NCBI GenBank assembly: GCA_964439175.1
Contig: CAYTNQ010000004.1
Coordinates: 8,759-72,758, forward strand
DNA: 64,000 bases
Direction of reading: 5' to 3'
From: an uncultured Anaerolineales bacterium
GTDB taxonomy: Bacteria > Chloroflexota > Anaerolineae > 4572-78 > NAK82
Shown here: positions 14,524 to 64,000 of the stretch, one piece after another
Numbering within the stretch: position 1 is the stretch's first letter
How the letters are laid out: the number at the start of each line of letters is the position of its first letter
Program-made: the position numbers and the translations under genes
The notes under the pieces: generated by a model
What the model was told of the DNA's origin: nothing
The model's input: the letters and a program-made list of their open reading frames with translations, nothing else
Databases searched by the model: none

Positions 14524-14539
14524 CGAGGCAATTCCTTGC

Positions 14540-17569: not shown

Positions 17570-17634
17570 GCATCTACCTTCCCCGTACAAAGCTGTCCAA
17601 GCATCTGGTTAGCGGCCAGGCTTTACAGAAACCA

Positions 17635-18399
17635 TCACGGCCCTCTACCTTCACCACTATAAAGAACAGGCCGAGCAACTGGACTTCTCTCCCCAAACAG
17701 CGCCATCCGCATCACATAACTAAAAGCCTCGATCACAATCCTGAAAGACATCTTTGATTGGCCGACCCGCCGATCTTCAAAAATGATCGGAAACTCTGAG
17801 ACTCTCCCCCCTAGACGCTCAACATAGTAAACGGACCCTACCTGAAAGGCATAGCCCTTCAATTGCATCTCTTGCCAAGGCACTTTCTGTAGCAACTCAC
17901 GGCGATAACATCGAAATCCGCCGGTGCAGTCTCGGGTTTTCAGCCCCAACATCAAACGAGCAAAGGTGTTACCCCCACCGCTGATCAGTTTGCGCAGCGC
18001 CCCCCAGTTTTGCGTGCCCCCCCCTTTTACGTAGCGCGAGCCGATGACCAGGTCGGCCAAGGCAATCTCTTCCAAAAACCCGGGCAAATAGCGAGGGTGA
18101 TGAGAAAAGTCGCAATCCATCTCCAATACATAGTCATACTCTCCGGCTAACGCCCAGCTAAACCCCGCGACATAAGCCGTCCCCAGGCCCATCTTCCCAG
18201 GGCGGTGGATGACATGCACGGCAGGCAGTTCTGCCGCCAACCGGTCCGCAATCTCTCCTGTGCCGTCTGGAGAGTTGTCATCAATCACCAGGATGTCAAA
18301 GCCACAGTTCTGGGCTAATATGGCAGAAACCAGCGGAGCGAGGTTTTCTGCCTCGTTATAAGTAGGAACAACGATGAGTGCACCAGCATGTTTTGTCAT
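17635..18399 (-). CDS. Polyprenol-phosphate mannose synthase-like GT2 (Ppm1/Dpm1 type)
   Basis: ALIVVPTYNEAENL, ILVIDDNSPDGTG, GLGTAYVAGF and EMDCDFSHHP blocks are characteristic of soluble Dpm1/Ppm1-type GT2 enzymes. About 255 aa. Confidence 0.75.
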   Translation of the reverse strand: MTKHAGALIVVPTYNEAENLAPLVSAILAQNCGFDILVIDDNSPDGTGEIADRLAAELPAVHVIHRPGKMGLGTAYVAGFSWALAGEYDYVLEMDCDFSHHPRYLPGFLEEIALADLVIGSRYVKGGGTQNWGALRKLISGGGNTFARLMLGLKTRDCTGGFRCYRRELLQKVPWQEMQLKGYAFQVGSVYYVERLGGRVSEFPIIFEDRRVGQSKMSFRIVIEAFSYVMRMALFGERSPVARPVLYSGEGRGP

Positions 18400-18417
18400 T
18401 TTCTTCTCACCCAAGAA

Positions 18418-43424: not shown

Positions 43425-44207
43425 CTAAATAATATCGGCAAACGCGGCCTCGGACCGCTTGAAATACCAATAAGCTATAATCAACAAGACAAGCGATACC
43501 AACCCTCCCAACACCAAATAGGGGAACGAAGGCCATTCTCCCAGCAAGATGATGCGGCGATAGGAATCGATAATCGAGGCCATCGGGTTTAGCATATACA
43601 CGGCAAGAAACCGGGGAGGGACCATGCTCAGCGGGTAGATGATGGGCGTGAGGTACATCCACAACTGAAGGCCCAACGGAACCACGAAGCGCACATCCCG
43701 GTAAAAGACATTCATTGCCGAAGCGAGCAGTACCACACTAACCGTGAAGACGATCTGGATCAAGAGCAACAGGGGAATACAAATCAGGCTGGCAGTCAAA
43801 GGTATCTGGTAGAAGATCATCATCCCCACGAAGATAAGCGAGGCAATAAAGAAATCCACCAGACTGGCTAAGACTGCCGAAAGAGGCAATATCTCGCGCG
43901 GGAAATAGATCTTGGTCACCAGGCTCATATTGCTGACCAGGCTGCTCACTCCGAAGGTGATGGAAGAGTTAAAGAAGGTCCAGGGCAGCAGGGCCGAATA
44001 GTAGAAGATAGGATAGGGAATACCATCTGTCGACACCCGGACAAAGCGCGAGAAGATGACAGCAAATATAAGAGTGGCCGATAGAGGTTGCAAAATCGCC
44101 CAGGCTGCCCCCATCAGAGATTGCTTGTAACGCACTTTGATATCGCGGACCACCCAACTGATGAGCAGCCCGCGATGAGCAGACAGTTCTTGTATATTTG
44201 CCAGCAT
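43425..44207 (-). CDS. wzm: ABC-2 type polysaccharide exporter permease
   Basis: LISWVVRDIKVRYKQSLMGAAWAILQP N-terminal signature and six TM helices. 260 aa. It lies directly upstream of wzt. Confidence 0.85.
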   Translation of the reverse strand: MLANIQELSAHRGLLISWVVRDIKVRYKQSLMGAAWAILQPLSATLIFAVIFSRFVRVSTDGIPYPIFYYSALLPWTFFNSSITFGVSSLVSNMSLVTKIYFPREILPLSAVLASLVDFFIASLIFVGMMIFYQIPLTASLICIPLLLLIQIVFTVSVVLLASAMNVFYRDVRFVVPLGLQLWMYLTPIIYPLSMVPPRFLAVYMLNPMASIIDSYRRIILLGEWPSFPYLVLGGLVSLVLLIIAYWYFKRSEAAFADII

Positions 44208-44208
44208 C

Positions 44209-46059
44209 TCAAACCTCAGCCCATTCTATTTCGCCCAAGCCATGGCTGCCGCCGTAGTCCATTACGAATTGGCGCAAGTCCTCCGTGCGGACCCACCACT
44301 GGCGACCTATCTTTATGGCCGAGATGCGTCCTGTCTCGCACCAGCGGGCGGCTGTGGCCTCTGCGACCCCCAGATACTCGGCCACATCGGCACAGGAGAG
44401 CATCCCGTCGTCGGATTGGGCATGTTGACCTCGACCAAACGGCAATCCAAAACGTCCCAGCCAGCCGAGCCCGCCACGGCTGTCAGGTGCCGCCCTCCCT
44501 GATTTGACCCGGCGGCTGTAAAGGTAATAACTACGGGGCAGGCTGACCCCATTGAACACGATACCCGCCAGGTTTGTCAGTCCCAGCGCTGCAAAGCGCC
44601 CGACGGCCTTTTGGGTAGCGCGACGACTGCTTTGATCCTGCCTCACCACCAGCAATGACGCATCTACCCGAGTCGCCAGGATAGCTGCATCAGGGTGTAA
44701 TAACATCGGTCCGCAGTCAAAGACTGCCAGCCTGGCCCGCTCCCGCAAGCATCCGATCAGGCGAGTCAGGTTGGGTGATCCCAAGAGCAAAGTGGGATCA
44801 ACCGGCACCTTGCCGGCCGGCAACACCCACAGATTAGCGATATCCACTGACTGCAATGCCCGGTCCAGTGTCTCATCAAAGGTTTCTTCTGAGGCAGTTA
44901 GCACATCAGCCAACCCAAACAGGTTGGGTAGGTCGAATAATTCGTGAACCGACGGCTTGCGCAAATCAGCATCAACCACAATTGTGGGAAATCCACCCGA
45001 GGCAGTAATGGCCGCCAGATTGACCGCGGTCAGGGTTTTACCTTCTCGCATCTCCGGGCTGCTAATAAGCAACGCGCGGATATCGTGGTCGCGCATCGAA
45101 AGAAAAAGGTTCGTCCGCATATTGCGGATAGCGTCGGCCTCAGGCGACCACAAATCTTTGCGCGTGACCAGCTTATCCGACGACGACAACCTGCCCAACG
45201 CCCCCAGGATGGGGACGCCCGCCACGGTTTGGGTACCTTTGGCATGCCACGTCAAGGTATCGGTGGCGAATTCCAAAAGCAGCACGGCACTCACCGACAA
45301 AGCCAGGCCTGCTAGCGCAGCAATCAAAACGTTCTTTTTCACGTTAGGCGCAATTGGCTTCGTCGAAATGGTCGCAGGCTCGACAATGGTGAGGGTGTTG
45401 ATAGACGAATCGGAGAGATAGCCCAATAAGCTAGTATAGTTAGCCTGATAGTCTGATTTTAACGTCTGAAGTTCGGCCAGGCGTGACTTGGCCTCAGCAA
45501 TGTCAGCGGCCGAGGTCATATTCAGCATCGAATCCTCAGCCTCTTTGATCTGGCGACTTGCCTCTTCGATCTTTGACTGCAATTCCTGAAGCTGGGCATA
45601 GATGAACTGTCGTGCAGACTGCTGCTCCCGCGCTTCAGTCGGGCTCTGCAAAATCAACTCCTGGGCCACGGCATCAGCCAATATCTGCGCCCGCTGCGGG
45701 TCGACGTCAAACACAGTAATCTCAAGAAGCTGAACGTCAGGCACAACCTTGGTGCTAATCATGCCTGCCAACTGGCCAGTGCTCATATCCAGCCCCAGCT
45801 TGTCGATTACTGCTTGCGTGATGGGTTTGCGCAGCACAAGCTGACCGTAAATCTCAGCCAGGGTCCGACTCAAGCCCAAGTCACGCAAATCGGGATTGGT
45901 GCTTTGAATGCTGGTACCCACCATCAGCGTGGTCCGCGAGGCATAGATGCGCGGCTGTCGCTCGCTGTACATGTAGCTGGCACCGGCCGCCAGGGCTACA
46001 CTGACCAAAACCAGCCACCACCAGCGCTTGACAATATCAAAATAACGTCCTAAATCCAT
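44209..46059 (-). CDS. Wzz-type chain-length determinant fused to BY-kinase and to a C-terminal excisionase-type HTH
   Basis: N-terminal Wzz block (YFDIVKRWWWLVLV..) is followed by a coiled-coil and a second TM. Walker A is SPEMREGKT, Walker A' VVDADLRKP, Walker B AVFDCGP. The Tyr cluster is SYYLYS. A Gly/Arg linker leads to MLSCADVAEYLGVAEATAARWCETGRISAIKIGRQWWVRTEDLRQFV. Confidence 0.8.
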   Translation of the reverse strand: MDLGRYFDIVKRWWWLVLVSVALAAGASYMYSERQPRIYASRTTLMVGTSIQSTNPDLRDLGLSRTLAEIYGQLVLRKPITQAVIDKLGLDMSTGQLAGMISTKVVPDVQLLEITVFDVDPQRAQILADAVAQELILQSPTEAREQQSARQFIYAQLQELQSKIEEASRQIKEAEDSMLNMTSAADIAEAKSRLAELQTLKSDYQANYTSLLGYLSDSSINTLTIVEPATISTKPIAPNVKKNVLIAALAGLALSVSAVLLLEFATDTLTWHAKGTQTVAGVPILGALGRLSSSDKLVTRKDLWSPEADAIRNMRTNLFLSMRDHDIRALLISSPEMREGKTLTAVNLAAITASGGFPTIVVDADLRKPSVHELFDLPNLFGLADVLTASEETFDETLDRALQSVDIANLWVLPAGKVPVDPTLLLGSPNLTRLIGCLRERARLAVFDCGPMLLHPDAAILATRVDASLLVVRQDQSSRRATQKAVGRFAALGLTNLAGIVFNGVSLPRSYYLYSRRVKSGRAAPDSRGGLGWLGRFGLPFGRGQHAQSDDGMLSCADVAEYLGVAEATAARWCETGRISAIKIGRQWWVRTEDLRQFVMDYGGSHGLGEIEWAEV

Positions 46060-48223: not shown

Positions 48224-49939
48224 CTATCTCCGAACGAACGCCAGCGTCTGCAATCCGATGTCCACCGCGCTCTTGAAACCTTCCCAGGAATTCAACCCTT
48301 TGAGCATGGTCCAAATAGGGCCAGGGCGCAAAGCCCACTCGCGTGTGGCCCGCTTTTGCCAGTATTCCAGGCACTCGGCGGTAAGACCCGTTTCGCGATA
48401 GTCGAGCACGGTAGAGCGATCCATGTCCACCTCTTCCCAGGCGGTGCCCGGTCGGAACCAGCCGTTTTCGACCACATCGAGGAAGAAAGGCGTGCCGGGA
48501 TAGGGAGCAGCGATGTGGAAAAGAGCCAGGTCCAGCGGCAACCTCTTGGCAAAGTCAATAGTTTTCCGGATGGTCTCCTCAGTCTCACCGGGCAGGCCTA
48601 TAATAAAATAACCCCAGTTTCCGATTCCGGCCTCCTTTGACCAGCGTAACGCCCGTTCCACTTTTTCCGGATAAGCTCCCTTGCGTGCTCGCCGCAATAT
48701 CTCCTCCGACGCCGATTCAATGCCCCAGGAGATCATCCAGCAACCTGCTTTGCCCATCAATTGCAACATCTCCTCGTCCACATAATCCACGCGACTGTTG
48801 CACGTCCAGCGAACTTTGAGCCCTTGCTCGATAATCGACTTACACAGGCCTACTACCTGATCCCGACTCACCGTGAACAGATCAGCGTACATGTGAATAT
48901 TGTGAATCCCCAAGTCGTGGAGCAGCCATAACTCTTCCACAATGTTCTCTGGTGAGCGGACGCGCACCGAATACTGGTAAGTGACGTGTTTGATGCAATA
49001 CTTGCAACCGGCGGTGCACCCCCGACTGGTGACGATGAAGGTATAGGGGCCCTTGATCATCGGGATACGATACTCATCCAAGGGGAGCAGGTGATGCATA
49101 GGCATAGGTAGATCATCCAAGTTGGCGATAAACGGCCGGTTGGCATTGGTCACGATTTCCCCATTACGTCGCCATCCCAGACCTTTGATGGTCGATAACT
49201 GATGATCGACAGCCGATGATTGGTCACCAATGGCTGACCGCCCGTCCAGGGACCAAGCGGGTCGCCATGCGGGATCCGTGTCGGAAAGCAACCGGTAGAT
49301 GTGTCCCTCTTGATCGGCAATGCGCCCATTCAGCCCTTGTAAACGGCCGTCAATCACCTGCCAACGACCATTAGCTACCTCCAGCGTATCCACCAACTCC
49401 CGCAGAGTCAGCTCTGGCTCGCCCCGGAGCACAAAATCCAACGCCGGGAACCGCGCCATCGTTTCACCCACCATCGGTGTGACATGTGTGCCAAAGGCGA
49501 TAGTCTTGGCCCCCAGGCTGTGGGCCAGAAAGACACCGTACATATCGTTAGTGAGTGTAGGGGCTGTCACCTGTGTCAGGTAATATTTGGGTTGCTTCGC
49601 GCGCAGTAATTGCTCGAACTCAGGCCAGGTCATTCGGGTGGCGATGGCATCCACCACCTCCACGCTGTAATCTGGGTGCAGTAAAGCCGCCAATTGAGCC
49701 AGCGACACCTGAGGCCAGATCATATTCTCACGCGAACGCCGGCCTACCCGGTGTTGGCTTCGAATCCAGATACCACCATCGGGCGCCGGTGGATTGACCA
49801 GCATGACATCCACCGCCCCCTCAGGCCGCTTCTGGGGTAGACTGCGCAAAACCGTCCCCACATCAGGATAATCAGCCTCACGCAATGGTTTCAATTTCCG
49901 CGTACCCAGGTTATGCCACACTTCCTGCTCAGTCATCAA
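48224..49939 (-). CDS. B12-binding-domain radical SAM enzyme
   Basis: N-terminal Rossmann-like B12-binding region (VMLVNPPAP...). The radical SAM cluster motif C-x3-C-x2-C lies in VTSRGCTAGCKYCIKH. 571 aa. It ends 6 nt before the next start codon. Confidence 0.8.
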   Translation of the reverse strand: MMTEQEVWHNLGTRKLKPLREADYPDVGTVLRSLPQKRPEGAVDVMLVNPPAPDGGIWIRSQHRVGRRSRENMIWPQVSLAQLAALLHPDYSVEVVDAIATRMTWPEFEQLLRAKQPKYYLTQVTAPTLTNDMYGVFLAHSLGAKTIAFGTHVTPMVGETMARFPALDFVLRGEPELTLRELVDTLEVANGRWQVIDGRLQGLNGRIADQEGHIYRLLSDTDPAWRPAWSLDGRSAIGDQSSAVDHQLSTIKGLGWRRNGEIVTNANRPFIANLDDLPMPMHHLLPLDEYRIPMIKGPYTFIVTSRGCTAGCKYCIKHVTYQYSVRVRSPENIVEELWLLHDLGIHNIHMYADLFTVSRDQVVGLCKSIIEQGLKVRWTCNSRVDYVDEEMLQLMGKAGCWMISWGIESASEEILRRARKGAYPEKVERALRWSKEAGIGNWGYFIIGLPGETEETIRKTIDFAKRLPLDLALFHIAAPYPGTPFFLDVVENGWFRPGTAWEEVDMDRSTVLDYRETGLTAECLEYWQKRATREWALRPGPIWTMLKGLNSWEGFKSAVDIGLQTLAFVRR

Positions 49940-50043: not shown

Positions 50044-51348
50044 TCATCGCACCTGCATAGAGGCTGTCAACTCTTCCATCGACGCACCAGTCTGTACTGC
50101 CGGGGTTGGGGTAGGCAAAACCCCCTCACGCTGTGTCCCCAAATCGTCGTAGGCTCGAGCTTCACGCTTACTGAGTTCCGCCAGGACGTTCACCAACAAC
50201 CACGAAGTCATCAATTGAAAGCCACTCAAAACCAGCACCGAACTAACCGCCGGCGCGAACCAGGAAGGCACTACCCTCGACGAATCCAGGCCCAAAAGCA
50301 CAGCCAGCACATAGACGACGACTCCTCCCACAACCGAAACCATTCCCATCCAGCCGAAGTGACCCTCCAACGGGGTACGGAAGAGGGGGCGACCGAACAA
50401 CCCTTGTCGTACCTGGCGCTTGTGAAAGAGTGACACTAAATAGTTGAACGTCGCTCCCGTCGAAAACAGATTGATGCCCACGGCAGCCAGCACGAAAGCG
50501 GCAAAGAAACGCGAGAAAGGCCACTGAGATGTGTTCTCGCCAATGCCGACCAATCCGGCAAAGAGAGCTACCAGAACGGCGACCAGCACCAACCCACTTC
50601 CCACCGCCCCCAGGATCCGGACGGGATTGTAGGTCATAGCCGTAGTCACGATAGACCTGAGGAAGCGAACTCCATCCTTCACGACACTCAGTTTTGACCG
50701 CCCCACCCGCTCAGCGTAGGGAATAGGCACTTCAACAATGCGCAGATTCTCATGGATGGCACGGGTACTCATCACCGGTGTGAAGTTCAGACCGTCGGGA
50801 AGTGGATAAAGGAGCAACAACGCATCGCGCCGCAATACCCGCTGTCCGCTGGCACTGTCGCTGACCCGCTGATTGCCGATAAGCGACACCAACGTGGCAA
50901 AGATGAGATTGCCGAGACGACGGACTGGCGGCATGTCGCTTTCGGCACCAGCCATCCGCGAGCCGATAACCAAATCGGCCCCTTCCTCCAAAATAGGCCG
51001 GCAGAGTTGAGGGAAATATTTAGGCGGATAGGTGCCATCAGCGTCAAGAAAAGCCAGCAAATTCCCCTTGGCATGGCGAAAGCCGGTTTTAATAGCTGCC
51101 CCATACCCCCGGTTGACCGCGTGCTGCACCAACACCACCTCTGGATAACCGGCGACAATCTCGGCCGTTCGGTCGCGCGATCCGTCGTCCACCACGATCA
51201 ACTCCAAATCCGAGACCCCAACCTTGGCTAACGAGCCTTTGATCGCCAGCACCCGCTCAATGATGTCGGCGATGCCGTCCTCTTCGTTCAACGCCGGGAT
51301 CACAACTGATAACGTATTCACTGCCTGCCCTCCTGTAATGGTAACCAC
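50044..51348 (-). CDS. Polyprenyl-phosphate glycosyltransferase (GT2, ArnC/GtrB/Dpm1-like) with C-terminal TM bundle
   Basis: LSVVIPALNEEDGI, VVDDGSRDRTAEI, NRGYGAAIKTGF and FLDADGTYPP blocks, then four hydrophobic helices. Start is GTG 51348, or a GTG nine codons downstream with an AGGAGGG SD. Confidence 0.75.
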   Translation of the reverse strand: MVTITGGQAVNTLSVVIPALNEEDGIADIIERVLAIKGSLAKVGVSDLELIVVDDGSRDRTAEIVAGYPEVVLVQHAVNRGYGAAIKTGFRHAKGNLLAFLDADGTYPPKYFPQLCRPILEEGADLVIGSRMAGAESDMPPVRRLGNLIFATLVSLIGNQRVSDSASGQRVLRRDALLLLYPLPDGLNFTPVMSTRAIHENLRIVEVPIPYAERVGRSKLSVVKDGVRFLRSIVTTAMTYNPVRILGAVGSGLVLVAVLVALFAGLVGIGENTSQWPFSRFFAAFVLAAVGINLFSTGATFNYLVSLFHKRQVRQGLFGRPLFRTPLEGHFGWMGMVSVVGGVVVYVLAVLLGLDSSRVVPSWFAPAVSSVLVLSGFQLMTSWLLVNVLAELSKREARAYDDLGTQREGVLPTPTPAVQTGASMEELTASMQVR

Positions 51349-51454: not shown

Positions 51455-51471
51455 AACAGTTACCTGTAATG

Positions 51472-52245
51472 CTACTGTTGCCTGGTACCCCTATCCCGAA
51501 ACTGTTCCAGCCGCCCCCAAAATACCTCCGGCCGCTGGCGATGGTTACTCTCTATTTGACGCCGGTCTCTGATGGTTTTGGCCGGAGCCCCGACGGCGAT
51601 GCTGTAGGGCGGGACGTCACCGGTGACGACGGCGCCGGCGCCGATCACACTACCCTGTCCGATGGTCACTCCGTCAAGCACAACAGCGCTGGCGCCGATC
51701 CACACGTCGTCTTCAATGACAATCCCTTGAGCAGTGATGCCCTGTTCACGGATAGGGCGGCTGGGGTCGTCGTAGACGTGGTTCACCGCCACGATTTGCA
51801 CCATCGGCCCGGTGTACACGTCGTTGCCAATGTGTACCCCCCCCTGGCCGCGCACCACGTTGAACTCGCCTATAAAGCAATTCCTGCCAATAGTGATACC
51901 GGCCTGAGGCAAATGACGAAAATTGAAAACGTGCAACATAGTATGATGCATGACAAAAGTACCTTCGCCGATGCTGATGCCGCCTGGCAAGGCGTGGAGA
52001 TAAACGCCACGATCCAGGTACACATTCTTACCCAGGCAAACGTTGCCGGCGTAGACAATGCGCACACCAGCTTCGATAGCTGGCACACCGTCAAGCTTCA
52101 TAATCGACCGATAAACCAGAGCGCGCAGCCCAATGCCGGCGACGGTGGGTACCCAGCCAAAGATGCTCAACACCAACTGTTCCAGCATATAAGCGGGCAA
52201 GCTCGAAGCCTGCCCCGTCAAGTAATAGCGAAGTTGCTCAATCAT
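51472..52245 (-). CDS. Hexapeptide-repeat (LbH) acyltransferase
   Basis: Long run of hexapeptide repeats ([13 protein letters not shown].., [13 protein letters not shown].., [31 protein letters not shown]). The plus-strand ORF 51469..52260 is its antisense shadow. Confidence 0.75.
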
Positions 52246-52261
52246 AGCCAGGAAGAATAAA

Positions 52262-52633
52262 TCAGGTGCTCGAAACGATTGTCACCCCTACCAAAACGCA
52301 GCCAATGCCCACCCATCGCCAGGAAGGTACCTGCTCTCCCAAAAGCAGCCAGGCAAAAAGAGGCACCAACACAAAATTCAGCGCAAGCAGCGGATAGGCC
52401 AGACTGACGTCCAGGCGAGACAGAACCACTAGCCAGATCATGGCACTCACGCCATAACACCCCAATCCTAACAACACCCATGGCGTCGTGAAAACCTGAA
52501 TGGCCGTGCGTAACACGGCAGTCAAGCTGGACAGATCCAGTGCGCCCATGCGTTCCATGCCCATCTTCAGCAAAATCTGGCCACTCACTCCCAACAGGCT
52601 GGATACGAGAACGAGCAAAAGCGAAAGTACCAT
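52262..52633 (-). CDS. Small four-helix EamA/SMR-like membrane protein (ArnE/ArnF flippase-like)
   Basis: 123 aa with four hydrophobic helices. SGQILLKMG and [21 protein letters not shown] resemble EamA half-domains or undecaprenyl-phosphate-aminoarabinose flippase subunits. Confidence 0.55.
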
Positions 52634-55195: not shown

Positions 55196-56479
55196 TTAAT
55201 GCACCTCGAGCGCTGGCAGACTGGCCTGAAGCGGAAGCGCGCCACAGACTTCCCAGCGGTGCGGTGGACGAAGAACACCCTTCTCGCCTCCAATAAGGCG
55301 GACGAGCAGCGGATAGGCATGCCAATGATAATCGTAAGCATAAGCCCAGTTTTGCTCGTAGACGCCGACGTCCACATAGTATTCTCCCCCGTTGAGGTCG
55401 AGCCGATCCAGTTGTAATACGATCTGGCCCCTGCCCTGGAGTGTTGGCAGAGTCAGCCCGGCTGCCGATGTGTTGGTATCATAGCAGACAAAGCCATCCT
55501 CACGGGTAATGGTGACACCAAAGATCGCTGCTGAGATAGGCTGAGGGGCCAGATACTCGATTTCGACGCGCAAAGGATCACCACTCTTCAACTCTGTGAC
55601 CAGAAAGCCATCGGTGTCGAGCAAGCGAACGGCGACAATCTCCATCGCTAACGACCCAAAGCGGTTCTCGTTGACCCGCAGTTCGGCACCGGTGGCTGTG
55701 CGTAGAGCGGGCCGCGCTGCCGGTGTGCGCCGCCGCGTCTCTGCCGACATCTCTGCCACATACTGTCCCACTACCACATCCGCCGCCCCGTAAGCTGCCA
55801 TATGTCCGGTACGCAGCCATAATACCTGGTCGCACAGTTGCTGGACCATGGTAGCATCGTGGGAAACGAGGATGATGGTACAGCCCTCGGCTTTGAACTG
55901 AGCGATTCGCTCCAGGCACTTGCGCTGAAACGCCATATCCCCGACTGCCAGCACCTCGTCAATCAGCAAGATCTCGGGCTCCATATGGGCGGCGATGGCA
56001 AAGGCCAGCCGCATCTGCATGCCGGTGCTGTAGGTGCGCAGCGGGTTATCAATAAACTGCTCGAGTTCCGCAAAGGCTACGATTGAGTCGAATCGTTGCG
56101 CCACCTCGCGACGGGTAAAGCCACTGATAACTCCATTGACGAAAACGTTCTCCCGCCCCGTCAGGTCAGGGTGAAAACCAGCCCCCAGGTCCAGCAGCGC
56201 GCCAATCCGTCCGTTGGCCTTCACACTGCCCTCATCAGGCCGTCCGACGCCGCCGATAAGCCGCAGCAACGTCGATTTTCCCGCTCCATTGGGACCAATC
56301 ACTCCGACCATGCACCCCGGGGCAATGCTGAAACTGACATTGCGCAGCGCCCAAAACTGCTCCGCTGGCCCCAACCGGCGCAGGCCATGCAGGAGCGCCT
56401 CCTTGAGCGTCACCGGACGATCAGTGTGATAGCGGCGGAATTGCTTGCCCAAACCCCGCGCAACAATCGCATCGCTCAT
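55196..56479 (-). CDS. wzt: Polysaccharide ABC exporter ATPase, second copy, with C-terminal glycan-binding-type domain
   Basis: Walker A GPNGAGKST, signature YSTGMQMRL and Walker B LLIDEVLAVGD. A ~170-aa beta-rich C-terminal extension is present. The ATG directly abuts the TAG of the upstream fusion gene. Confidence 0.85.
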   Translation of the reverse strand: MSDAIVARGLGKQFRRYHTDRPVTLKEALLHGLRRLGPAEQFWALRNVSFSIAPGCMVGVIGPNGAGKSTLLRLIGGVGRPDEGSVKANGRIGALLDLGAGFHPDLTGRENVFVNGVISGFTRREVAQRFDSIVAFAELEQFIDNPLRTYSTGMQMRLAFAIAAHMEPEILLIDEVLAVGDMAFQRKCLERIAQFKAEGCTIILVSHDATMVQQLCDQVLWLRTGHMAAYGAADVVVGQYVAEMSAETRRRTPAARPALRTATGAELRVNENRFGSLAMEIVAVRLLDTDGFLVTELKSGDPLRVEIEYLAPQPISAAIFGVTITREDGFVCYDTNTSAAGLTLPTLQGRGQIVLQLDRLDLNGGEYYVDVGVYEQNWAYAYDYHWHAYPLLVRLIGGEKGVLRPPHRWEVCGALPLQASLPALEVH

Positions 56480-59416
56480 CTACAATTCCTCCACAAAGCG
56501 GCAACTGGCCCTGGTAAAGATAACGTAGCCGAGTCCCAGCAGCCCAGCAGTGAGAGCGGCAAGTCCCAACAGCGACAGACCATCTGGCAACTTCCCCCAG
56601 ATCAGGATAGCACGATAGGCATCAAGCATATGCATCATCGGGTTGAGACGATAGACAAGGCGGTAGCGCGCCGGAACAGCGCTGGCATCATAGAAGACGG
56701 GAGTGAGATAGAAAAGCAGCAGCAGCAGCACACCCAAGAGGTGTTGCGTGTCCCGGAAGGTAACGTGAAAGGTCGCCACCAGATAGGCCAGGCTAAGGAT
56801 AAGCAGGAATTGAACGGCAATCACCAACGGCAGCGCCACGAACGCCCCCGTCGGCCGCAAGCCGCTGAGCATCAGGAAGAGCAACAGGATAGGGAGCGCC
56901 AGCAGGAAGTGGATCATGTTGCTCATCACCGTGACCACCGGCAGAATGGCCGCCGGGAAACCGGGGCGCTTGATCAGATCGCGATTGTCGGTGATGGCGC
57001 CGGCTGCCAACAATAACGATGATTGGAACCAACTCCAGGCCAATACACCGCTGAAGACAAATAGGGGATAGTTCGGGATGTTGAGCGGCAGAACGCGACG
57101 GAAGAGGAAGATAAAGATCAGCAATTGGGCCAGCGGATTGAGGAGCGACCAAGCGATACCCAGCACCGAGCGCTTGTAGCGCAGTTTCATATCACGGGAA
57201 ACCAACTCGCGCAGCAGGTCGCGCAGATAGATCAGCCGCCGTGTGTAGAGCGGTGCGCTGGCATTGATCGTGATGGAGTTTCTTTGTAGGATCAGCACCG
57301 CACCAATGCCCAACACAACGCCAAGGACAAGCAACAAAGGCAACAAGGTATCAAGAGTGCTCGCCAATGTCCGGCCTTGTGCCAGCGCCAGCGTTGTCTG
57401 TACCTCGACCACGCCGTCCTGTGCCGCGATGGAATGGTAGTCTTGATCGCTATTGGTATCCCAGACCTCGCTCGCAACGCCGCCGCGCAGCTTCGTTGTC
57501 TCGAAGACATAGTCTATAGTCGCGCCGGAAGGTACCTGTACCTTGGCGACGAACGTGTCCCCCTCACGGACCATCGGAGTATACATGAGCGCATCTTTCA
57601 CCCGCGTCCCGGCCGGACGTGTCTCTTCGGTCACAACAGCCCACCCATTGATCCCCCAGACCAGAAACACCTCACCCGCTTCGGGCATATGGTAGCGGAT
57701 ATCCTGAGTGACAAGCGGAGTGTCAGCAGCCCTCGCAAGCGTCTGAGCCTGTGACAGAGCCAGTGTTGAGACTTCTGCCGGGCTAAGAACCCGATAAATA
57801 ACATACTGGGAAGTCTGAGAATGGAATTGACAGGTGCGCTTTATGTGCTCGACTAACGCGGGGTGACCTGTCCAAAAGTCCTTTTTACGCTCACTGGCAA
57901 TCCCCAGCCAGTCTGCACCCTTAGCCCGGAGTTCCTCGAACATTCGGATGGATTCATTGTCATCTTCAGGCAGTTGGTCCCACACGATATCATTGGAAGC
58001 AGGTGGGAAAATCCACCCACGCCGCCGGCTATAGTAGATGGCGTTAGGATCGCCAAGATCACTCGCCATGGTGACGACTAGGTCGCCCGGTTGCGATACT
58101 TGACGCAGAGCCAACCCCAACCCGTAGCTTTCGTCCCCATAGGGTCTGGTATACATATTCTTCAAAACATTCTGCCCAGCCCCACCAATTATGAGCAAGA
58201 ACACCGCCACTGCTGCTCGTGAGGCAAGCGGCCGTGTGCTCAAGGGCCTGAGGGATGCAATCGAAACGATGGCGTGGCCCGCCAGCGCCGCCCCTACGGG
58301 GTTGATAATGTGGAAGTTCCAAGGGTTGTCGACAAGCTCTTTGGCACCAATGAAGTAGTAAAAGATACCGGCGAGAAGCCACCAGTGAAACAGCCAGGGT
58401 GCCTTACCCGAGTTGTTTATTGGCAACTGGTCCTCCCCAGACTCCCGGCTGCGCTCCCTTCCGGGTGGGCGGAGGAGCAGACCCAGTGAAACAAGATAGA
58501 TCACAGGCGCAGCCCACAACCAATAGTAGAAATTCACTTGCAGGCTTGGAAGGAAATAGTTTTGGTCCCACCATTCCCTCAATCCATCATTCCAAAGCCA
58601 GTTTCCAGAACCCGCAAAATGGTATGGTGGGTAAGAGAGGGAAAGATGTCTCGCCCAGAGGTAGTAGCCGATCACCGGCGCCAATGCAAGGACCCCTACG
58701 ACACCAGGTATCACGAGCTTCGCCGGCTGCAATTTCCGCTTAGCGCCGAGGATAGTTAGCGTAGCGTAGGCCATTGGGAGCCCAACGATCAAGCCAGGAA
58801 TTTTCGTGAGGAGACCCCACGCTCCGGTCACCCCCGCCAGCAGCAAGTAGCGCTGGCGTTCAGTTTGGAGGTAGGCAACCAGCATCCAGAGGCTGGTTAT
58901 CATCAGCGCTACCATAGCTGGATCAGGTAGAAACGATCGTTCAACAAAAATGCTCCCCGGCAAAACCGCCATGACGGCGGCGCTGGCAATAGCACGCTCT
59001 TCATCCCACACCCGACGGACGAGTTGATAGAGAGCGAAGATACCCCACAAGCCAAACATCACGGCTACACTGCGTCCGACCCAATCCTGCTGGCCGACGA
59101 TGGTGTAAAGCACCGCTGCTATGTAAGACACTGTCTGAAATTCACGTCCCTGGTAGTTAGGCCCTGGCCCGCCCCAGTTCACTTCTGGGTAGAAGATGTT
59201 CCAATTGGTGCGGTAGAAGTTATCTGCCATCATAGCGGTACTGGCCTGTCGCCAACTGAAGACATCTGTAAAAGGTTGGGTGATGTGATGAAGCCGCAGG
59301 ATACCCGCAATGACCAGGACGATTACAATTTGTAGCGTGATCAGGCGCGCTGAGAAGTTATTGCACGGGTGAAAACGTTGTGGATAAGTTTTAGTGTAGA
59401 AACCAGGTGTTTTCAT
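56480..59416 (-). CDS. Fusion protein: GT-C (ArnT/PMT_2-like) glycosyltransferase + beta-sandwich carbohydrate-binding-like module + Wzm ABC-2 permease
   Basis: Residues are numbered from the listed ORF start. Residues ~35-560 form a GT-C pattern (FSWRQASTAMMADNFYR.., many TM helices, soluble C-domain). Residues ~585-690 form a beta-sandwich (EVFLVWGINGW..DTFVAKVQVPSGATIDYVF). A single TM spans 703-723. Residues ~735-991 form a complete Wzm (LLRELVSRDMKLRYKRSVLGIAWSLLNP plus 6 TM). No stop codon occurs anywhere in the ORF. ATG 59416 makes an ATGA overlap with the upstream gene. Confidence 0.75.
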   Translation of the reverse strand: MKTPGFYTKTYPQRFHPCNNFSARLITLQIVIVLVIAGILRLHHITQPFTDVFSWRQASTAMMADNFYRTNWNIFYPEVNWGGPGPNYQGREFQTVSYIAAVLYTIVGQQDWVGRSVAVMFGLWGIFALYQLVRRVWDEERAIASAAVMAVLPGSIFVERSFLPDPAMVALMITSLWMLVAYLQTERQRYLLLAGVTGAWGLLTKIPGLIVGLPMAYATLTILGAKRKLQPAKLVIPGVVGVLALAPVIGYYLWARHLSLSYPPYHFAGSGNWLWNDGLREWWDQNYFLPSLQVNFYYWLWAAPVIYLVSLGLLLRPPGRERSRESGEDQLPINNSGKAPWLFHWWLLAGIFYYFIGAKELVDNPWNFHIINPVGAALAGHAIVSIASLRPLSTRPLASRAAVAVFLLIIGGAGQNVLKNMYTRPYGDESYGLGLALRQVSQPGDLVVTMASDLGDPNAIYYSRRRGWIFPPASNDIVWDQLPEDDNESIRMFEELRAKGADWLGIASERKKDFWTGHPALVEHIKRTCQFHSQTSQYVIYRVLSPAEVSTLALSQAQTLARAADTPLVTQDIRYHMPEAGEVFLVWGINGWAVVTEETRPAGTRVKDALMYTPMVREGDTFVAKVQVPSGATIDYVFETTKLRGGVASEVWDTNSDQDYHSIAAQDGVVEVQTTLALAQGRTLASTLDTLLPLLLVLGVVLGIGAVLILQRNSITINASAPLYTRRLIYLRDLLRELVSRDMKLRYKRSVLGIAWSLLNPLAQLLIFIFLFRRVLPLNIPNYPLFVFSGVLAWSWFQSSLLLAAGAITDNRDLIKRPGFPAAILPVVTVMSNMIHFLLALPILLLFLMLSGLRPTGAFVALPLVIAVQFLLILSLAYLVATFHVTFRDTQHLLGVLLLLLFYLTPVFYDASAVPARYRLVYRLNPMMHMLDAYRAILIWGKLPDGLSLLGLAALTAGLLGLGYVIFTRASCRFVEEL

Positions 59417-62121
59417 TCCTGCCAGCCTACATTCAGGCTTTTCAAACTCCTCCAAGACCCATAGGATAACTCAGGTTGTTTATGGCGCTGGGAAACCGGG
59501 ACGTAGGGGTGGCTGTGGCCTTCGCGCCTGACACGCCGTCGTGACTGCCACAACGACCACGGTCCGGCCAGATTTCCTGCAATTTCAAGCAAGGTTAGCA
59601 ACAACGGATAGTCGCTCTTTTTGCCCCGCAGCCGATCCTTCAATTGCCACACGATCTGCCGCAGGCGCCAGCGTGGCATATGGACCGCCAAGTGTAGTAA
59701 CGCCCGCAGATCGTGATCGCGCAGCAGGGTCGTCACATGGTAAGCCACGTGGCCCTTACTGTAGTCGTAGATCTGGCGGCGCAGCGCTGACATATCGCGA
59801 CGATGCTTGTGCCGGACGTAGGCCGCCGGCTCATACACGAGCGTGTAGCCAGCCTTGAGCACTTTATAGAAAAGATACGTATCCTCTCCGACGCCGGCAG
59901 GCATGCCCGGTCCCAACGCTTCGTCCATCAGGCCTATCTGGGGATGGCTGAAGATACTGGCGCGAAAAGCAGCGTTGGCAGTTGCCCCCAGCTCCCACGT
60001 TGGTACAGCCTGGCGCCGAAATGATTCGAACCAGTCACCGCCGACCTCAAGCCGCTTAAAGCCACGTCCCAGGCCGCCGTATCTCTCAAAGAAGCACTGA
60101 GCCGAGGTTTCCAGTTCCAACGGCAAGGTATTGCCGGTCACGATCATCACATCGCTTCGAACGAAGGGGGCCACCAGCTTCTCCAGCCAATCGGGCGGGA
60201 CTATCACATCATCGTCTGTGGCGATAACGATGTCACCTTGACTGGCGGCAAATCCCGCATTACGAGCGTAAGCCAGTCCCCGGCGCGGCTCGTCTACCAA
60301 CACCACCCCCGGGAACTCGGCAACCACGGGTGGCGTCAGGCCAGAGGCCGGATTGTTGTCAACCACAACGATTTCGAAAAGCCGCGGCGACTCCTGGGCG
60401 ATCAGGCAGCGCAGGCATTCACGCAGACCGTCCGGCCGGTTGAGGGTCGCTACCACGACTGAGACTGAGACATCGGCAGGTAGTCTGGCAGACGCAGATG
60501 TCTCCGTCCCACCCACTGTCGGCATATAGTGCCGATTCAGGGCTGCCGCTATTTCAGCCCAGAGGAATTCCAGGCTTAAGTCGCGATCTGGCTCGACCAG
60601 TTTGAGGCCAAGTTGATCGACAATAGCCTGGCGCAGGCGGGTCGCGCTGACAGGTTGGTGATAGTTGGGGATATCCGCGCTACCCAGAAGGCGATCGTTC
60701 CAGGTCACAAAGACGCGCACCTGGGCGTAATCCGTCACGTCGGTCAACGCAGGCAAAGTTTGAGCCAAGTCGACGGTGCGCACCGCGACAGCGTCTCGAG
60801 GCTTGGAGATTCTCTTAGGTGACAGATGCCTCCCAGGAATCACAACCTGGGTAACAGGCCCAAAGCTATTGGCGACCCGAGCAGCAGCCTGGCGGGCCTT
60901 CCGGTAACGGCCCAAGCCTATAAAGGAGCCTTGCAATTCGGCCAGGATTAGATTACGCGGGAGGCGGGCCGGACGTACCAGGGAGACCAACAGAGGACGT
61001 ACATTCCCCTTCCACAGCCACCACAGGCCGAAACGGATGAAAGCAGAGCGCTCATCCGGATAAGCCAGGGCACTGCGCACAAAATACGAGTACAGGCCAA
61101 CACCATTGTTGGTTATCTGCCTTTGCAGTTGGCCGTAATCGCGGCGGTGGCGGTGGCGTACAATTGCGCTGGGCTCATAGACCAGTGTGTATCCTTCTTT
61201 TAACACGCGGAAGAACATTTCGAGGTCACCACCGCCGTTGGTGACTGTGCCTACATCCAGGGCTGGATCAAAGTACCCAATTTGGTCGAACAGGCTGCGA
61301 CGGTAGGCCATATTAGCCCCGGTGCCGAACTGTCCTGCGCCGTGATACGACCATTGCTCACCATTTTCTCGTTCCACCCGGTACCACCTTCGCTCGAAAC
61401 CGCGCCCGAAGCCGCCGTGCCATTCAAAGAAGATTTGGGCCTCGGTCTCAAGTTCATAGGGCACCACCAACCCGGTGACAGCCATCACATGCGGGCCTTC
61501 GGTGAAGACGCTGGTCAAAGCCCTGACCCAACCCGGGTCAACCACCCCATCGTCGTCTGTGTAGGCGATGATCTCACCCTGGGCCTCGATGATTGCCCGG
61601 TTGCGCGCCCAATTGAGGCCAGGCCGGGGCTCGCGAATATAGCGCACGCCTGGGTAGCTGGTGCGTATCAGGTGTTCGGTAGCATCACTGCTCGGCGCAT
61701 TATCCACAACCAGAAGATCAAGATCCGGGTAATCGAGTCGGCACAAGGCATCCAAACAGATCGCCAGGTCATCCGTGCGGTCGCGGGTACAGACCGCCAC
61801 CGTCACCAACGGGAATGGCCCAGTGGAGATTGGGTGCGCCCCATGAGCCAGGTCTGCAATACGTAGTCCACCCGGTTGTGGCGGGGCTGCCAACCCATCA
61901 CGCAATAGATGGCGTATGATGGCCCAGCTATGTTGATCCAGGATAGCTTTTCTCAGGGCTGCTGCTGTGCAGCGGCCGCCAATTACGGGCACCTGGACAT
62001 ATCCAATCGGCGTGCCGTGCAGGCGGACCAGTCCCCATAGAGCCACATAACCGTCCAGGCCCTCGATAGTCGTAGGCGGACAGCTCAATTCGATATCCAC
62101 CACTTTCATACGCTGAAACAC
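59413..62121 (-). CDS. Dual-module GT2 glycosyltransferase (putative glycan polymerase)
   Basis: Two complete GT2 modules. The first carries VVDNAPSSDAT / YTDDDGVVDPGW / GANMAYRR..GGGDLEMFFRVLKEGYTLVYEP. The second carries VVDNNPASGLT / ATDDDVIVPPDW / ANAAFRA..GVGEDTYLFYKVLKAGYTLVYEP. Confidence 0.8.
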   Translation of the reverse strand: MFQRMKVVDIELSCPPTTIEGLDGYVALWGLVRLHGTPIGYVQVPVIGGRCTAAALRKAILDQHSWAIIRHLLRDGLAAPPQPGGLRIADLAHGAHPISTGPFPLVTVAVCTRDRTDDLAICLDALCRLDYPDLDLLVVDNAPSSDATEHLIRTSYPGVRYIREPRPGLNWARNRAIIEAQGEIIAYTDDDGVVDPGWVRALTSVFTEGPHVMAVTGLVVPYELETEAQIFFEWHGGFGRGFERRWYRVERENGEQWSYHGAGQFGTGANMAYRRSLFDQIGYFDPALDVGTVTNGGGDLEMFFRVLKEGYTLVYEPSAIVRHRHRRDYGQLQRQITNNGVGLYSYFVRSALAYPDERSAFIRFGLWWLWKGNVRPLLVSLVRPARLPRNLILAELQGSFIGLGRYRKARQAAARVANSFGPVTQVVIPGRHLSPKRISKPRDAVAVRTVDLAQTLPALTDVTDYAQVRVFVTWNDRLLGSADIPNYHQPVSATRLRQAIVDQLGLKLVEPDRDLSLEFLWAEIAAALNRHYMPTVGGTETSASARLPADVSVSVVVATLNRPDGLRECLRCLIAQESPRLFEIVVVDNNPASGLTPPVVAEFPGVVLVDEPRRGLAYARNAGFAASQGDIVIATDDDVIVPPDWLEKLVAPFVRSDVMIVTGNTLPLELETSAQCFFERYGGLGRGFKRLEVGGDWFESFRRQAVPTWELGATANAAFRASIFSHPQIGLMDEALGPGMPAGVGEDTYLFYKVLKAGYTLVYEPAAYVRHKHRRDMSALRRQIYDYSKGHVAYHVTTLLRDHDLRALLHLAVHMPRWRLRQIVWQLKDRLRGKKSDYPLLLTLLEIAGNLAGPWSLWQSRRRVRREGHSHPYVPVSQRHKQPELSYGSWRSLKSLNVGWQE

Positions 62122-62185: not shown

Positions 62186-64000
62186 CTACGATTTGGCCAA
62201 CAAGGTCGGCTTAACTTCCGGCACCCCGCGCCAGTCGCCACTATTCTGCTGGGGTGCAATCTGAATCGGCTCACGGTGACGGATCTGCCAGCGAGAACGA
62301 GCATAAGCAAATGGACCTAGAAGAGCACCGTAGAGACCGGCGACAACCACCTCGGGCGGAAGTAGATGCAAGCCCAGCAATGAAGCCGCCAACTCACGAA
62401 CTTGATACTTGACGAACCAACCCAGGCCCAGACGGAGTACTGCCAGATCACCGCGGATGGCCCACCTGGCAAAGGCCGCAGCGGCGCCCACGCTGTAGCG
62501 ATAGCGGAGCATACGCAGGCCAGAGAGCGTGCTGCGATGGCGGTGCCAGACAACCATAGCTGGCTCGTAGAGAATGGTTTCACCTCCCTTGAGCAGCCGG
62601 TAGAACATGTCGATGTCTCCGCCAGCATGGGCCGGGGTACCTGCGTCAAGGGCCTCGTTAAACGTCCCAAATCGGAGCAACGCCTGGCGCCGAAAGGCCA
62701 TATTGGCACCAACGCCGATATCACCGACCGGCGTGGTCGGCAGCGAGCCCTTGTAGAGTCGGCGCTCAAAGCCGCGCCCCAACCCGCCAGAGCGCTCGAA
62801 AAGGTACTGCGCTGGCGTCTTGAGTTCGAGGGGGAGTACCAACCCAATGACGCACGCAATGGCTGGATCAGCAAAGCCCATAGCGAGCGCTGCAAGCCAG
62901 CGCGAGTCCACGACTACGTCATCATCGACAAAGGCAACGATGTCACCACGGGCTTCGGCCAGGCCACGGTTGCGTGCACGGCAAAGGCCTACTTGCTCCT
63001 CACGTACAACTCGTACCGGGTAGTCGGCTGCAACTCGTGCTGTCTCAGGGCCTGAGCCATTATCGACGACGATGATCTCATGGGGAGCGCCCTCAATACC
63101 CCTGAGTCCTTGCAGGCAAGTGCGCAGCAGCGCAGGACGATTTCGGGTGCAGATCACGATTGAGATATGCTGGAGAGATGGGGTTTCCGGAAGCCGGTGA
63201 GGGGTAGCCTGTTTCTCCAGAGTATGGATTGCGCTGGCGAGTCGCGCCTGTGTAACCACAGGTCCCGGATTCTGAATGAGCAACGATCCCTGCGGCCGTC
63301 CATTCCGATTGACCAACAGGTACAGATCACGATTTTCCTCGAGCTCCAGAATCGCCGGAAGGCCGTCATCCAGCTCAAGGCTTAACACCTGGGCAGGCTG
63401 CAGATAGTGCATCTGCTCGCGCTGCACTCGTCGCAGCGAGCGCAAGAAAGCCACTGGACCTACGAGGTGACCCAGCGTCTCAATCAGGATCAGGTGGACC
63501 GGCAGCCCTTTGCGCTTCAGGAGTCGCCGGGCGAGCCAGCGCCCCTGCTGCCAGAAGCGATAACCGGCCAGCAACAACGCTTCACGCCTCATCTCGCGTT
63601 CAACCACTAAACTTTTGGTCAGCAACGCAGTGAAGGCCTTGCCATAAGCCCAGAATTGGCGATAGCTTTCGTCTTCACTCACTCGATGCCGATGGTAGAC
63701 CAACGCTGTAGGGTTGTAGACAGCGACAAAGCCCGCCCGCAGAAGTCGACGGAAGATGTCTATGTCTCCCCCGCCTCCGGTGGGGGTGCCAGCGTCGAGT
63801 GCCTCGTCAAAGGGGCCGATCACGTCGAAAACCTCGCGACGAAAGGCCATATTGCAGCCAGTCCCCAAATGTGAGGGGTAGACCGGGAACCAGGGACGAT
63901 CGTCGCTGGCGGTGAAACGTATAGGTTCCACGCCACGGTCGAACGAAAAGTGCTCCTCGAAATGACGCTGCGCCATTGTCCTTAGTTCCAGCGGCAGGAC
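62186..64000 (-). CDS. Multi-module GT2 glycosyltransferase, 5' end outside window
   Basis: The frame stays open upstream of the listed ATG 63976 to the window edge (VLPLELRTMAQRHFEE..). That segment aligns with the mid-module motif LPLELETSAQCFFERYGG of the neighbouring gene. It therefore holds one complete module (VVDNGSGPETA / FVDDDVVVDSRW / GANMAFRR..GGDIDMFYRLLKGG) and the C-terminal half of another. Confidence 0.75.
   Translation of the reverse strand, partial: VLPLELRTMAQRHFEEHFSFDRGVEPIRFTASDDRPWFPVYPSHLGTGCNMAFRREVFDVIGPFDEALDAGTPTGGGGDIDIFRRLLRAGFVAVYNPTALVYHRHRVSEDESYRQFWAYGKAFTALLTKSLVVEREMRREALLLAGYRFWQQGRWLARRLLKRKGLPVHLILIETLGHLVGPVAFLRSLRRVQREQMHYLQPAQVLSLELDDGLPAILELEENRDLYLLVNRNGRPQGSLLIQNPGPVVTQARLASAIHTLEKQATPHRLPETPSLQHISIVICTRNRPALLRTCLQGLRGIEGAPHEIIVVDNGSGPETARVAADYPVRVVREEQVGLCRARNRGLAEARGDIVAFVDDDVVVDSRWLAALAMGFADPAIACVIGLVLPLELKTPAQYLFERSGGLGRGFERRLYKGSLPTTPVGDIGVGANMAFRRQALLRFGTFNEALDAGTPAHAGGDIDMFYRLLKGGETILYEPAMVVWHRHRSTLSGLRMLRYRYSVGAAAAFARWAIRGDLAVLRLGLGWFVKYQVRELAASLLGLHLLPPEVVVAGLYGALLGPFAYARSRWQIRHREPIQIAPQQNSGDWRGVPEVKPTLLAKS

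Follow-up and report, generated by a model that had tools for sequence, protein, structure and literature searches.

A 64,000-nucleotide stretch of the genome of an uncultured Anaerolineales bacterium (contig CAYTNQ010000004.1 of assembly GCA_964439175.1; hereafter the window) carries a gene that encodes, as one polypeptide, a glycosyltransferase (GT) of the GT-C class, a beta-sandwich resembling a carbohydrate-binding module (CBM), a single transmembrane (TM) helix and a complete Wzm permease of the kind that serves ATP-binding cassette (ABC) polysaccharide exporters. The fusion is real and rare. An earlier note made from the letters of this DNA had proposed that export and an extracytoplasmic glycosyltransferase are functionally coupled; this is strongly backed because the fusion recurs, a second GT-C lineage sits on the same CBM-Wzm cassette (database protein P0249), an orthologous locus exists in unfused form (locus L002 of Kouleothrix) and a signal peptide precedes the sandwich in split forms. 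As to mechanism, we somewhat favour a GT-C that is tethered to the exporter, depends on a lipid-phospho-sugar and would decorate or extend the exported polymer, with the CBM-like module holding the emerging chain.

The open frame extends over 991 codons (56480..59455, minus strand) and its translation contains no internal stop. The likely start, the ATG at 59416, overlaps as ATGA the stop codon of the preceding open reading frame (ORF), which encodes a 902-amino-acid (aa) dual-GT2 protein, and gives a product of 978 aa. Residues are numbered here from this ATG; the earlier note counted from a TTG at 59455, so its residue numbers are 13 higher. At the other end the TAG stop (56480-56482) abuts the ATG of the Wzt gene. 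The note's account of both operon junctions and of an uninterrupted ORF that parses into distinct domains was confirmed by translation, Pfam profiles and predicted folds.

A search of 5.8 billion protein clusters recovered the same domain order, as the note had suggested such a search might, in ten further clusters at 90% identity, making 11 with that of the window. The ten align to 96-99% of the query with identities of 52-89%, derive from JGI, Logan and NCBI assemblies and all carry both PF13231 and PF01061; the automatic JGI annotation of the protein P0002 names both halves. The nearest named relatives are Chloroflexota (Caldilineaceae, Ardenticatenaceae, Kouleothrix and Anaerolineales). 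Among 1.84 billion representatives at 50% identity we found one full-length protein (P0010) and one divergent one (P0249). We computed the ratio of nonsynonymous to synonymous substitution rates (dN/dS) against the closest relative, the 89%-identical protein of locus L023, and obtained 0.13 for the membrane part of the GT-C, 0.14 for its soluble domain, 0.19 for the beta-sandwich and 0.09 for Wzm, and thus all four domains are under purifying selection; the 55-codon linker gave 0.86, with neither an indel nor a stop relative to L023. The earlier concern that a frameshift or stop might split the ORF is answered by the recurrence of the fusion and by the codon analysis. That the gene is an assembly or sequencing artefact, or a pseudogene that arose when two neighbouring genes lost the stop codon separating them, has a close to negligible probability: the rarity of the architecture is all that speaks for it, 11 independent clusters share the same order, the frame is kept across the junction with no indels and all domains are under purifying selection, and on recurrence and codon analysis we rejected it.

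An AlphaFold2 model of the fusion, built on an alignment of 108 sequences, has a mean predicted local distance difference test score (pLDDT) of 84.9 and shows all four domains with confidence, the GT-C part lying mostly above 85. The profile scans suggested in the earlier note placed both ends of the protein above their Pfam cut-offs: PMT_2 (PF13231) at residues 96-249 (70.5 bits, cut-off 26.1) and ABC2_membrane (PF01061) at residues 735-938 (62.7 bits, cut-off 26.9). Using Foldseek, the best geometric fit of the N-terminal 560 residues was to ArnT (5EZM; target-normalised TM-score 0.60, root-mean-square deviation (rmsd) 7.4 Å, E 1e-9), and further GT-C enzymes, each matched like ArnT with a probability of 1.00, were AglB, STT3, ALG9/12, DPY19, Pmt4, AftB and Emb. 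The lowest E-values belonged to archaeal AglB oligosaccharyltransferases (E 2e-11), but these had TM-scores of 0.33-0.39 and an rmsd of about 16 Å. An acidic residue straight after TM1 in the first outer loop, D51, is invariant in 57 of 57 sequences, and the conserved residues E92, D111, R160 and D165 lie on the outer face with it; the soluble domain has its own conserved set (Y461, Y462, S463, R465, R466, G467, W468, F470, P471 and P472). Of the approximately 120 positions of the GT-C at which 93% or more of the sequences agree, the window protein deviates at one (L102 to V), and those it keeps include D51, E92, D111, R160, D165, K205, H266, H344 and H369. Orthology to ArnT was not indicated, as there was no ArnT model among the NCBIfam matches and no ArnT match in a PDB sequence search, nor did Pfam give an STT3 or Wzy_C match at E <0.01 anywhere in the fusion; the GT-C is an uncharacterised subfamily of PMT_2. 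Those enzymes of the PMT_2/ArnT kind that have been characterised transfer one sugar, which they take from polyprenyl-phosphate.

The beta-sandwich, modelled alone, has a pLDDT of about 90 and is closest in Foldseek to the CBM20 of STBD1 (8X8K; E 2.4e-5, target-normalised TM-score 0.66), followed by the CBM20 of CGTase, CBM25 and the CBM48 of AMPK. The homologous module in two longer homologues passes the CBM53 profile (P0003, 70.1 bits; P0004, 61.3 bits). Five of its residues are invariant (W587, G588, W592, M611 and M615), and W587 and W592 form a putative aromatic platform for glycan. The connecting TM helix that follows is found in all fusions and in all CBM-Wzm forms, and has no indels relative to L023. 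Beyond it, fusion residues 734-957 align to residues 5-235 of the 256-aa Wzm of Aquifex aeolicus (6M96; E 2.6e-20), the same part superposes on A. aeolicus 6OIH with a target-normalised TM-score of 0.88 and an rmsd of 2.5 Å, and a stand-alone 263-aa Wzm from an Ardenticatenaceae genome (P0147) is 73% identical, its residue 3 aligning with fusion residue 718. Because the 6M96 and P0147 alignments span it, the permease is complete, as the earlier note had held, and it is predicted to export a lipid-linked polysaccharide in an ATP-driven manner.

Helices of the AlphaFold2 model combined with hydropathy gave a topology of 11+1+6 TM helices with the N-terminus inside. Lysine and arginine account for 31 of 137 residues in short inner loops versus 10 of 106 in outer loops. 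Where relatives have no GT-C, a signal-peptide-like anchor comes first, and the beta-sandwich, TM helix and Wzm come after it; since the signal peptide or anchor directly precedes the sandwich in these split homologues, the sandwich lies outside. The earlier argument from parity, that an odd number of crossings, here a single helix, must lead from an outward-facing module to a cytoplasmic Wzm N-terminus, is borne out by both the positive-inside count and these relatives.

We also considered whether a separate Wzm might be produced from an internal start. The start of stand-alone Wzm proteins equates to about residue 716 of the fusion, no in-frame ATG, GTG or TTG occurs between codons 708 and 737, and the next candidates, L738 and M743, would cut off the conserved YLRDLL interface helix. 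A separate permease is therefore disfavoured and the permease is almost certainly made within the long protein; initiation from within the connecting TM helix is possible.

Comparison with relatives revealed a modular family. The GT-C occurs alone as a protein of about 540 aa (55-65% identity) in Chloroflexota, cyanobacteria, Nitrospirota and Acidobacteriota, with a sandwich in P0057, and with one or more sandwiches N-terminal to it in P0019. About 25 clusters combine a signal peptide, one or two sandwiches, the TM helix and Wzm without a GT-C, an example being locus L008 in an Anaerolineales genome. In P0249 a different PMT_2 GT-C, without significant similarity to that of the window, is carried on a cassette of two CBM-like modules, TM helix and Wzm that is 51% identical to the window's, so a GT-C has been joined to this cassette at least twice. 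In the fusions a glycan-binding-like module always lies between GT-C and Wzm. Members of this Wzm subfamily can also have an FkbM methyltransferase (P0300) or a GT2 (P0305) fused to the N-terminus on the cytoplasmic side.

A scan of a genome collection for the beta-sandwich used a single peptide pattern of low sensitivity, giving no reliable phyletic census; it returned 13 loci, none with the triple fusion and one with two CBM-like modules, TM helix and Wzm. Further membrane or secreted proteins, from cyanobacteria, Nitrospiraceae and Bacteroidota metagenome-assembled genomes (MAGs; L009-L020), also contain the sandwich, often in tandem, and in L010 and L015 it sits N-terminal to a distant GT-C.

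In each fusion locus that was read (L001, L021, L022, L023, L025 and the contig of P0005) a Wzt with a Wzt_C domain lies directly 3′ of the fusion and GT2 genes lie upstream. A minimal form is that of a Caldilineaceae MAG (L001; GCA_041391145.1, 10001-17550), which consists of three genes only, encoding a 1535-aa protein (truncated GT2, two PMT_2 stretches, sandwich and Wzm), Wzt and a 548-aa protein with a weak PMT_2 match, with no other glycan genes within 10 kb. The Caldilineaceae protein P0012 has 560 additional aa at its N-terminus, which we compared with the ArnC-like synthase and the dual GT2 and which showed no similarity to either; Pfam suggests a truncated GT2 and a second PMT_2 stretch.

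The unfused orthologous locus in Kouleothrix has the order GT2, Wzm, Wzt, dual GT2, GT2-deacetylase, GT-C, ArnC-like GT2 and a protein with LPG_synthase_TM. Identities to the window proteins are 48% for Wzm, 43% for Wzt, 67% for the dual GT2 (898 aa, full length) and 57% for the GT-C, and the ArnC-like GT2 (match at 2.7e-73) adjoins the GT-C.

Stand-alone GT-C orthologues in Acidobacteriota, Nitrospirota and cyanobacteria repeatedly adjoin a methyltransferase-GT2 fusion of about 516 aa (L026, 4152-12547; L027, 2981-9721; L004, 1-1352; and the P0005 contig), and in L026 and L027 a Methyltransf_9-like protein is adjacent to the GT-C as well, without wzm or wzt nearby. This neighbourhood hints at a conserved core module of unassigned product.

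Coordinates of the fusion, its domains and its neighbours are given in Table 1. Downstream of Wzt, behind an opposite-strand aldehyde dehydrogenase gene, a minus-strand block encodes a GmhB-like phosphatase, a 123-aa protein with four TM helices, a hexapeptide acyltransferase and a 434-aa GT2; the block is conserved in L023. The 434-aa GT2 resembles ArnC and lies, with an ArnE/F-like gene for the 123-aa protein, 3-6 kb from the fusion, the GT2 itself at 5 kb. NCBIfam matches were below cut-off for both: AglJ, ArnC and PgfS for the GT2, and ArnE (7e-16, 58.4 bits, cut-off 92) and ArnF (3e-14, 53.5 bits, cut-off 99) for the 123-aa protein. These two proteins are candidates for the other two components of a three-component GT-C system, and the GT-C is predicted, on the strength of its family and its neighbours, to use a polyprenyl-phosphate-monosaccharide donor. 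A scan for promoters and terminators gave counts no different from shuffled sequences and was uninformative, and an attempt to read polymer chemistry from the GT2 enzymes was dropped, NCBIfam giving weak matches that were all below cut-off (MftF-like and EpsD-like).

Table 1. Positions in the window of the fusion gene, its domains and neighbouring genes, with the basis of each assignment (residues of the 978-aa product)
Feature	Position	Strand	Basis
Whole fusion gene (978 aa and stop): GT-C, beta-sandwich, TM helix, Wzm	56480..59416	minus	Translation; Pfam PMT_2 and ABC2_membrane; 11 full-length homologue clusters
Membrane part of the GT-C (residues 21-418) with 11 TM helices; its first outer loop holds two juxtamembrane helices, as does that of ArnT	58163..59356	minus	PMT_2; AlphaFold2 helices; Foldseek; conservation; positive-inside count
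GT-C extracytoplasmic alpha/beta soluble domain, residues 425-557	57746..58144	minus	AlphaFold2 secondary structure, pLDDT >90 (427-557 in the AlphaFold2 model)
Starch-binding-domain-like beta-sandwich (CBM20/25/48/53 fold), residues 566-675	57392..57721	minus	CBM53; Foldseek; alignment (568-673 in the AlphaFold2 model)
TM helix linking the sandwich to Wzm (residues 692-712), running from outside to inside	57281..57343	minus	Hydropathy 2.91; AlphaFold2 helix
Full-length Wzm of ABC-2 type (residues 716-978), with six TM helices behind an N-terminal interface helix	56483..57271	minus	PF01061; 6M96; Foldseek; P0147
Wzt ATPase with C-terminal Wzt_C carbohydrate-binding domain	55196..56479	minus	ABC_tran and Wzt_C; start abuts fusion stop
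Dual-GT2 protein, 902 aa, candidate cytoplasmic polymerase	59413..62121	minus	Two GT2 domains (Pfam); stop overlaps fusion start
GT2 protein, 596 aa, upstream and co-oriented	62186..63976	minus	Pfam GT2; related to Kouleothrix 431-aa GT2
Candidate donor synthase, 434-aa GT2 with C-terminal TM helices (ArnC/DPMS/GtrB-like)	50044..51348	minus	ArnC structure 9BHC (residues 10-318, E 2e-22); DPMS 5MLZ; GtrB 5EKP
Candidate lipid-phospho-sugar flippase, 123 aa, 4 TM helices, EamA/SMR-type	52262..52633	minus	Pfam EamA; NCBIfam ArnE and ArnF

Other features of the window were noted in passing. The B12-binding radical SAM protein at 48224-49939 (minus strand; similar to the hopanoid-associated HpnJ at 1.4e-60, below cut-off) adjoins the ArnC-like GT2 and may modify the lipid-linked sugar or a lipid. 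Two ORFs overlap nearly fully in antisense, at 51469-52260 (plus strand) and 51472-52245 (minus strand), with family support for the minus-strand one only, the hexapeptide acyltransferase. The ordinary stand-alone wzm (43425-44207) that the earlier note had set beside the fusion as an internal control is present with its wzt; directly upstream of that pair lies an ORF (44209-46059, minus strand) for a 616-aa protein with Wzz/GNVR chain-length-determinant regions, a ParA/CbiA-like ATPase region and a C-terminal HTH_17, an unusual case of a polysaccharide co-polymerase/bacterial tyrosine kinase-like protein with a DNA-binding tail. A separate Wzy_C protein is encoded in another cluster (29140-30567). 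Two further stand-alone PMT_2 GT-Cs and a 259-aa GT2 (12925-14571, 16196-17590 and 17635-18414, all minus strand) raise the number of GT-C enzymes in the window to at least three and that of candidate lipid-phospho-sugar synthases to two; the GC content falls to 0.48 at 16-18 kb and at 26-28 kb.

Under the mechanism that we somewhat favour, the adjacent GT2 enzymes would build a polyprenyl-diphosphate-linked polymer in the cytoplasm, the end of which would be recognised by the C-terminal domain of Wzt before the chain is threaded outward through the channel of a Wzm2Wzt2 transporter. On the outer face the tethered GT-C, two copies per transporter, would add sugars to the emerging polymer, drawing them from a polyprenyl-phosphate-monosaccharide that would be made by the ArnC-like GT2 and flipped by the ArnE/F-like protein; the added residues may be side-chain decorations or an outer extension. 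The beta-sandwich may bind the chain and hold it close to the active site, possibly opposing back-sliding. A more specific version is a co-export glycosylation machine: a pair of GT-C sites and a pair of glycan-binding modules would be held where the Wzm2Wzt2 channel opens outward, and the polymer would be decorated, and perhaps ratcheted outward, during threading. This is a tentative proposal, which we think may well be wrong. If true, it would be a polysaccharide counterpart of the oligosaccharyltransferase docked on the protein translocon, and the relatives made up of signal peptide, CBM-like module, TM helix and Wzm would represent a class of ABC exporters, so far overlooked, that is marked by a receiving domain on the outside.

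A number of observations weigh against the tethered GT-C mechanism or its parts. Searches of PDB sequences with the single sequence and with a profile matched Wzm only and gave nothing for the GT-C part; with no sequence-level match to solved GT-Cs, its ArnT-like assignment is based on the Pfam PMT_2 match and the fold. The CBM53 profile at residues 573-633 of the window protein scores 21.3 bits, below the cut-off of 27.6. The connecting helix has low pLDDT in the AlphaFold2 model. Some CBM-Wzm loci have no GT-C nearby, and stand-alone GT-C orthologues in Acidobacteriota and Nitrospirota have neither wzm nor wzt within 10 kb, so the GT-C family is not universally tied to this exporter. Finally, the opposite-strand aldehyde dehydrogenase gene sets the donor genes apart from the fusion operon, and the two other stand-alone PMT_2 GT-Cs in the window could use those genes, so their assignment to this GT-C is not exclusive.

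The isolated GT-C orthologues and the CBM-Wzm loci without a GT-C are also what might be expected if fusion did not entail channelling and the GT-C acted on some other acceptor (secreted proteins, a membrane glycolipid or another glycan), having been joined to Wzm simply as another member of one envelope-glycan regulon, or because additions to the Wzm N-terminus do no harm. The unrelated FkbM and GT2 fusions of this Wzm subfamily and the relaxed selection on the linker are in keeping with this. These other partners are, however, pathway enzymes, so fusion tracks pathway membership; two GT-C lineages have come to the same CBM-Wzm cassette, the glycan-binding-like module is invariably interposed, and the fusion has persisted under purifying selection down to 52% identity. 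We regard fusion without channelling as unlikely.

The AlphaFold2 model speaks on both sides of a second alternative, raised in the earlier note, that the GT-C is a ligase or oligosaccharyltransferase tethered to the exporter which moves the whole, finished polymer en bloc from polyprenyl-diphosphate to its last acceptor; protein, peptidoglycan or a glycolipid might serve as that acceptor. By E-value its leading Foldseek matches are the AglB oligosaccharyltransferases, but by geometry ArnT fits better, and the Pfam assignment is to PMT_2. Direct hand-off from exporter to ligase would favour a fusion, and Pfam identified no WaaL-like gene in the immediate operon. A ligase would, however, need neither an ArnC-like nor an ArnE/F-like protein, yet the window encodes both, and the unfused Kouleothrix orthologue adjoins an ArnC-like synthase. 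Because of the family assignment and these ArnC-like neighbours, en-bloc ligation is the less likely activity, and we consider it distinctly improbable.

It is also conceivable that the sandwich, TM helix and Wzm make up the functional core, the sandwich being an outer glycan-receiving domain that stands to Wzm as BcsB does to BcsA, and that the GT-C is optional, its role secondary or lost. The roughly 25 clusters and the loci that have this core without a GT-C, L008 among them, suggest as much. Against this, the fusion GT-C keeps all but one of its highly conserved residues at a dN/dS of 0.13 and is thus not decaying, and we give this possibility little weight.

The fusion bears on how and when the extracytoplasmic modification of glycans is coordinated with their ABC export, and on whether exporter and modifier are in contact. 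A natural covalent fusion argues that the two work side by side in these lineages, and the fixed 1:1 stoichiometry and short tether constrain the position of the GT-C relative to the channel, making the single polypeptide a target for cryo-electron microscopy and reconstitution. An outer glycan-binding-like domain on Wzm, with or without a GT-C, would be a new element of ABC exporters, acting as receiver or ratchet, that could aid the prediction of substrates. A self-contained unit of polymerisation, export and decoration would also appeal to glyco-engineering, the Caldilineaceae locus amounting to three such genes.

Individual elements of the proposed system have counterparts elsewhere. In cellulose synthase, export through BcsA is driven by the synthase itself and BcsB is a separate subunit; BcsA-BcsB likewise has carbohydrate-binding domains on a single TM helix above a polysaccharide-translocating channel, but the families are unrelated and export here would be ABC-driven. 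In mycobacterial arabinogalactan synthesis GlfT1 and GlfT2 make galactan, Wzm-Wzt exports it (structures 9QFX) and the GT-Cs AftA and EmbA/B arabinosylate it from decaprenyl-phospho-arabinose. The parallel with a GT2-built lipid-linked polymer, Wzm/Wzt export and outside elaboration by a GT-C from a lipid-phospho-sugar is close, although the mycobacterial proteins are separate, their GT-Cs belong to other families and the window proteins fall far below the galactan-specific NCBIfam cut-offs. The A. aeolicus Wzm-Wzt exporter (6OIH, 6M96 and 7K2T) corresponds to the Wzm part over its full length and also has a partner Wzt with a C-terminal carbohydrate-binding domain; a canonical Wzm, however, begins with its cytoplasmic interface helix, whereas the fusion has some 715 residues ahead of that helix, two extracytoplasmic domains among them.

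ArnT of the ArnC/ArnE-ArnF/ArnT pathway, which adds aminoarabinose to lipid A, is the closest solved fold to the GT-C and the window encodes ArnC-like and ArnE/F-like proteins, but ArnT is a protein of its own, there is no ArnT match at the sequence level, the NCBIfam Arn matches lie far below cut-off, no genes for synthesis of 4-amino-4-deoxy-L-arabinose were seen and the acceptor is likely to be a polymer rather than lipid A. A precedent is the periplasmic modification of O-polysaccharides exported by ABC transporters, which three-component GT-C systems carry out in, for example, Klebsiella and Citrobacter youngae (PMC11127046). These systems, of the GtrA/GtrB/GtrC type, comprise a GT2 that synthesises a polyprenyl-phosphate sugar, a small membrane protein for flipping it and a GT-C by which the sugar is added to the exported lipid-linked polymer, itself the product of a Wzm/Wzt pathway with a CBM on its Wzt (PMC11127046), much as we propose here. 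Their GT-C is free-standing, whereas that of the window is of a different, uncharacterised PMT_2 subfamily and has a covalent connection to Wzm, made up of a CBM-like module and a TM helix. Full-text literature searches returned no description of a Wzm-GT-C fusion or of a Wzm with an extracytoplasmic domain. ABC-dependent export and three-component GT-C glycosylation are thus known, and what the Anaerolineales fusion adds to them is a covalent link between exporter and modifier, together with a CBM-like domain that an ABC-2 permease bears on its outer side.

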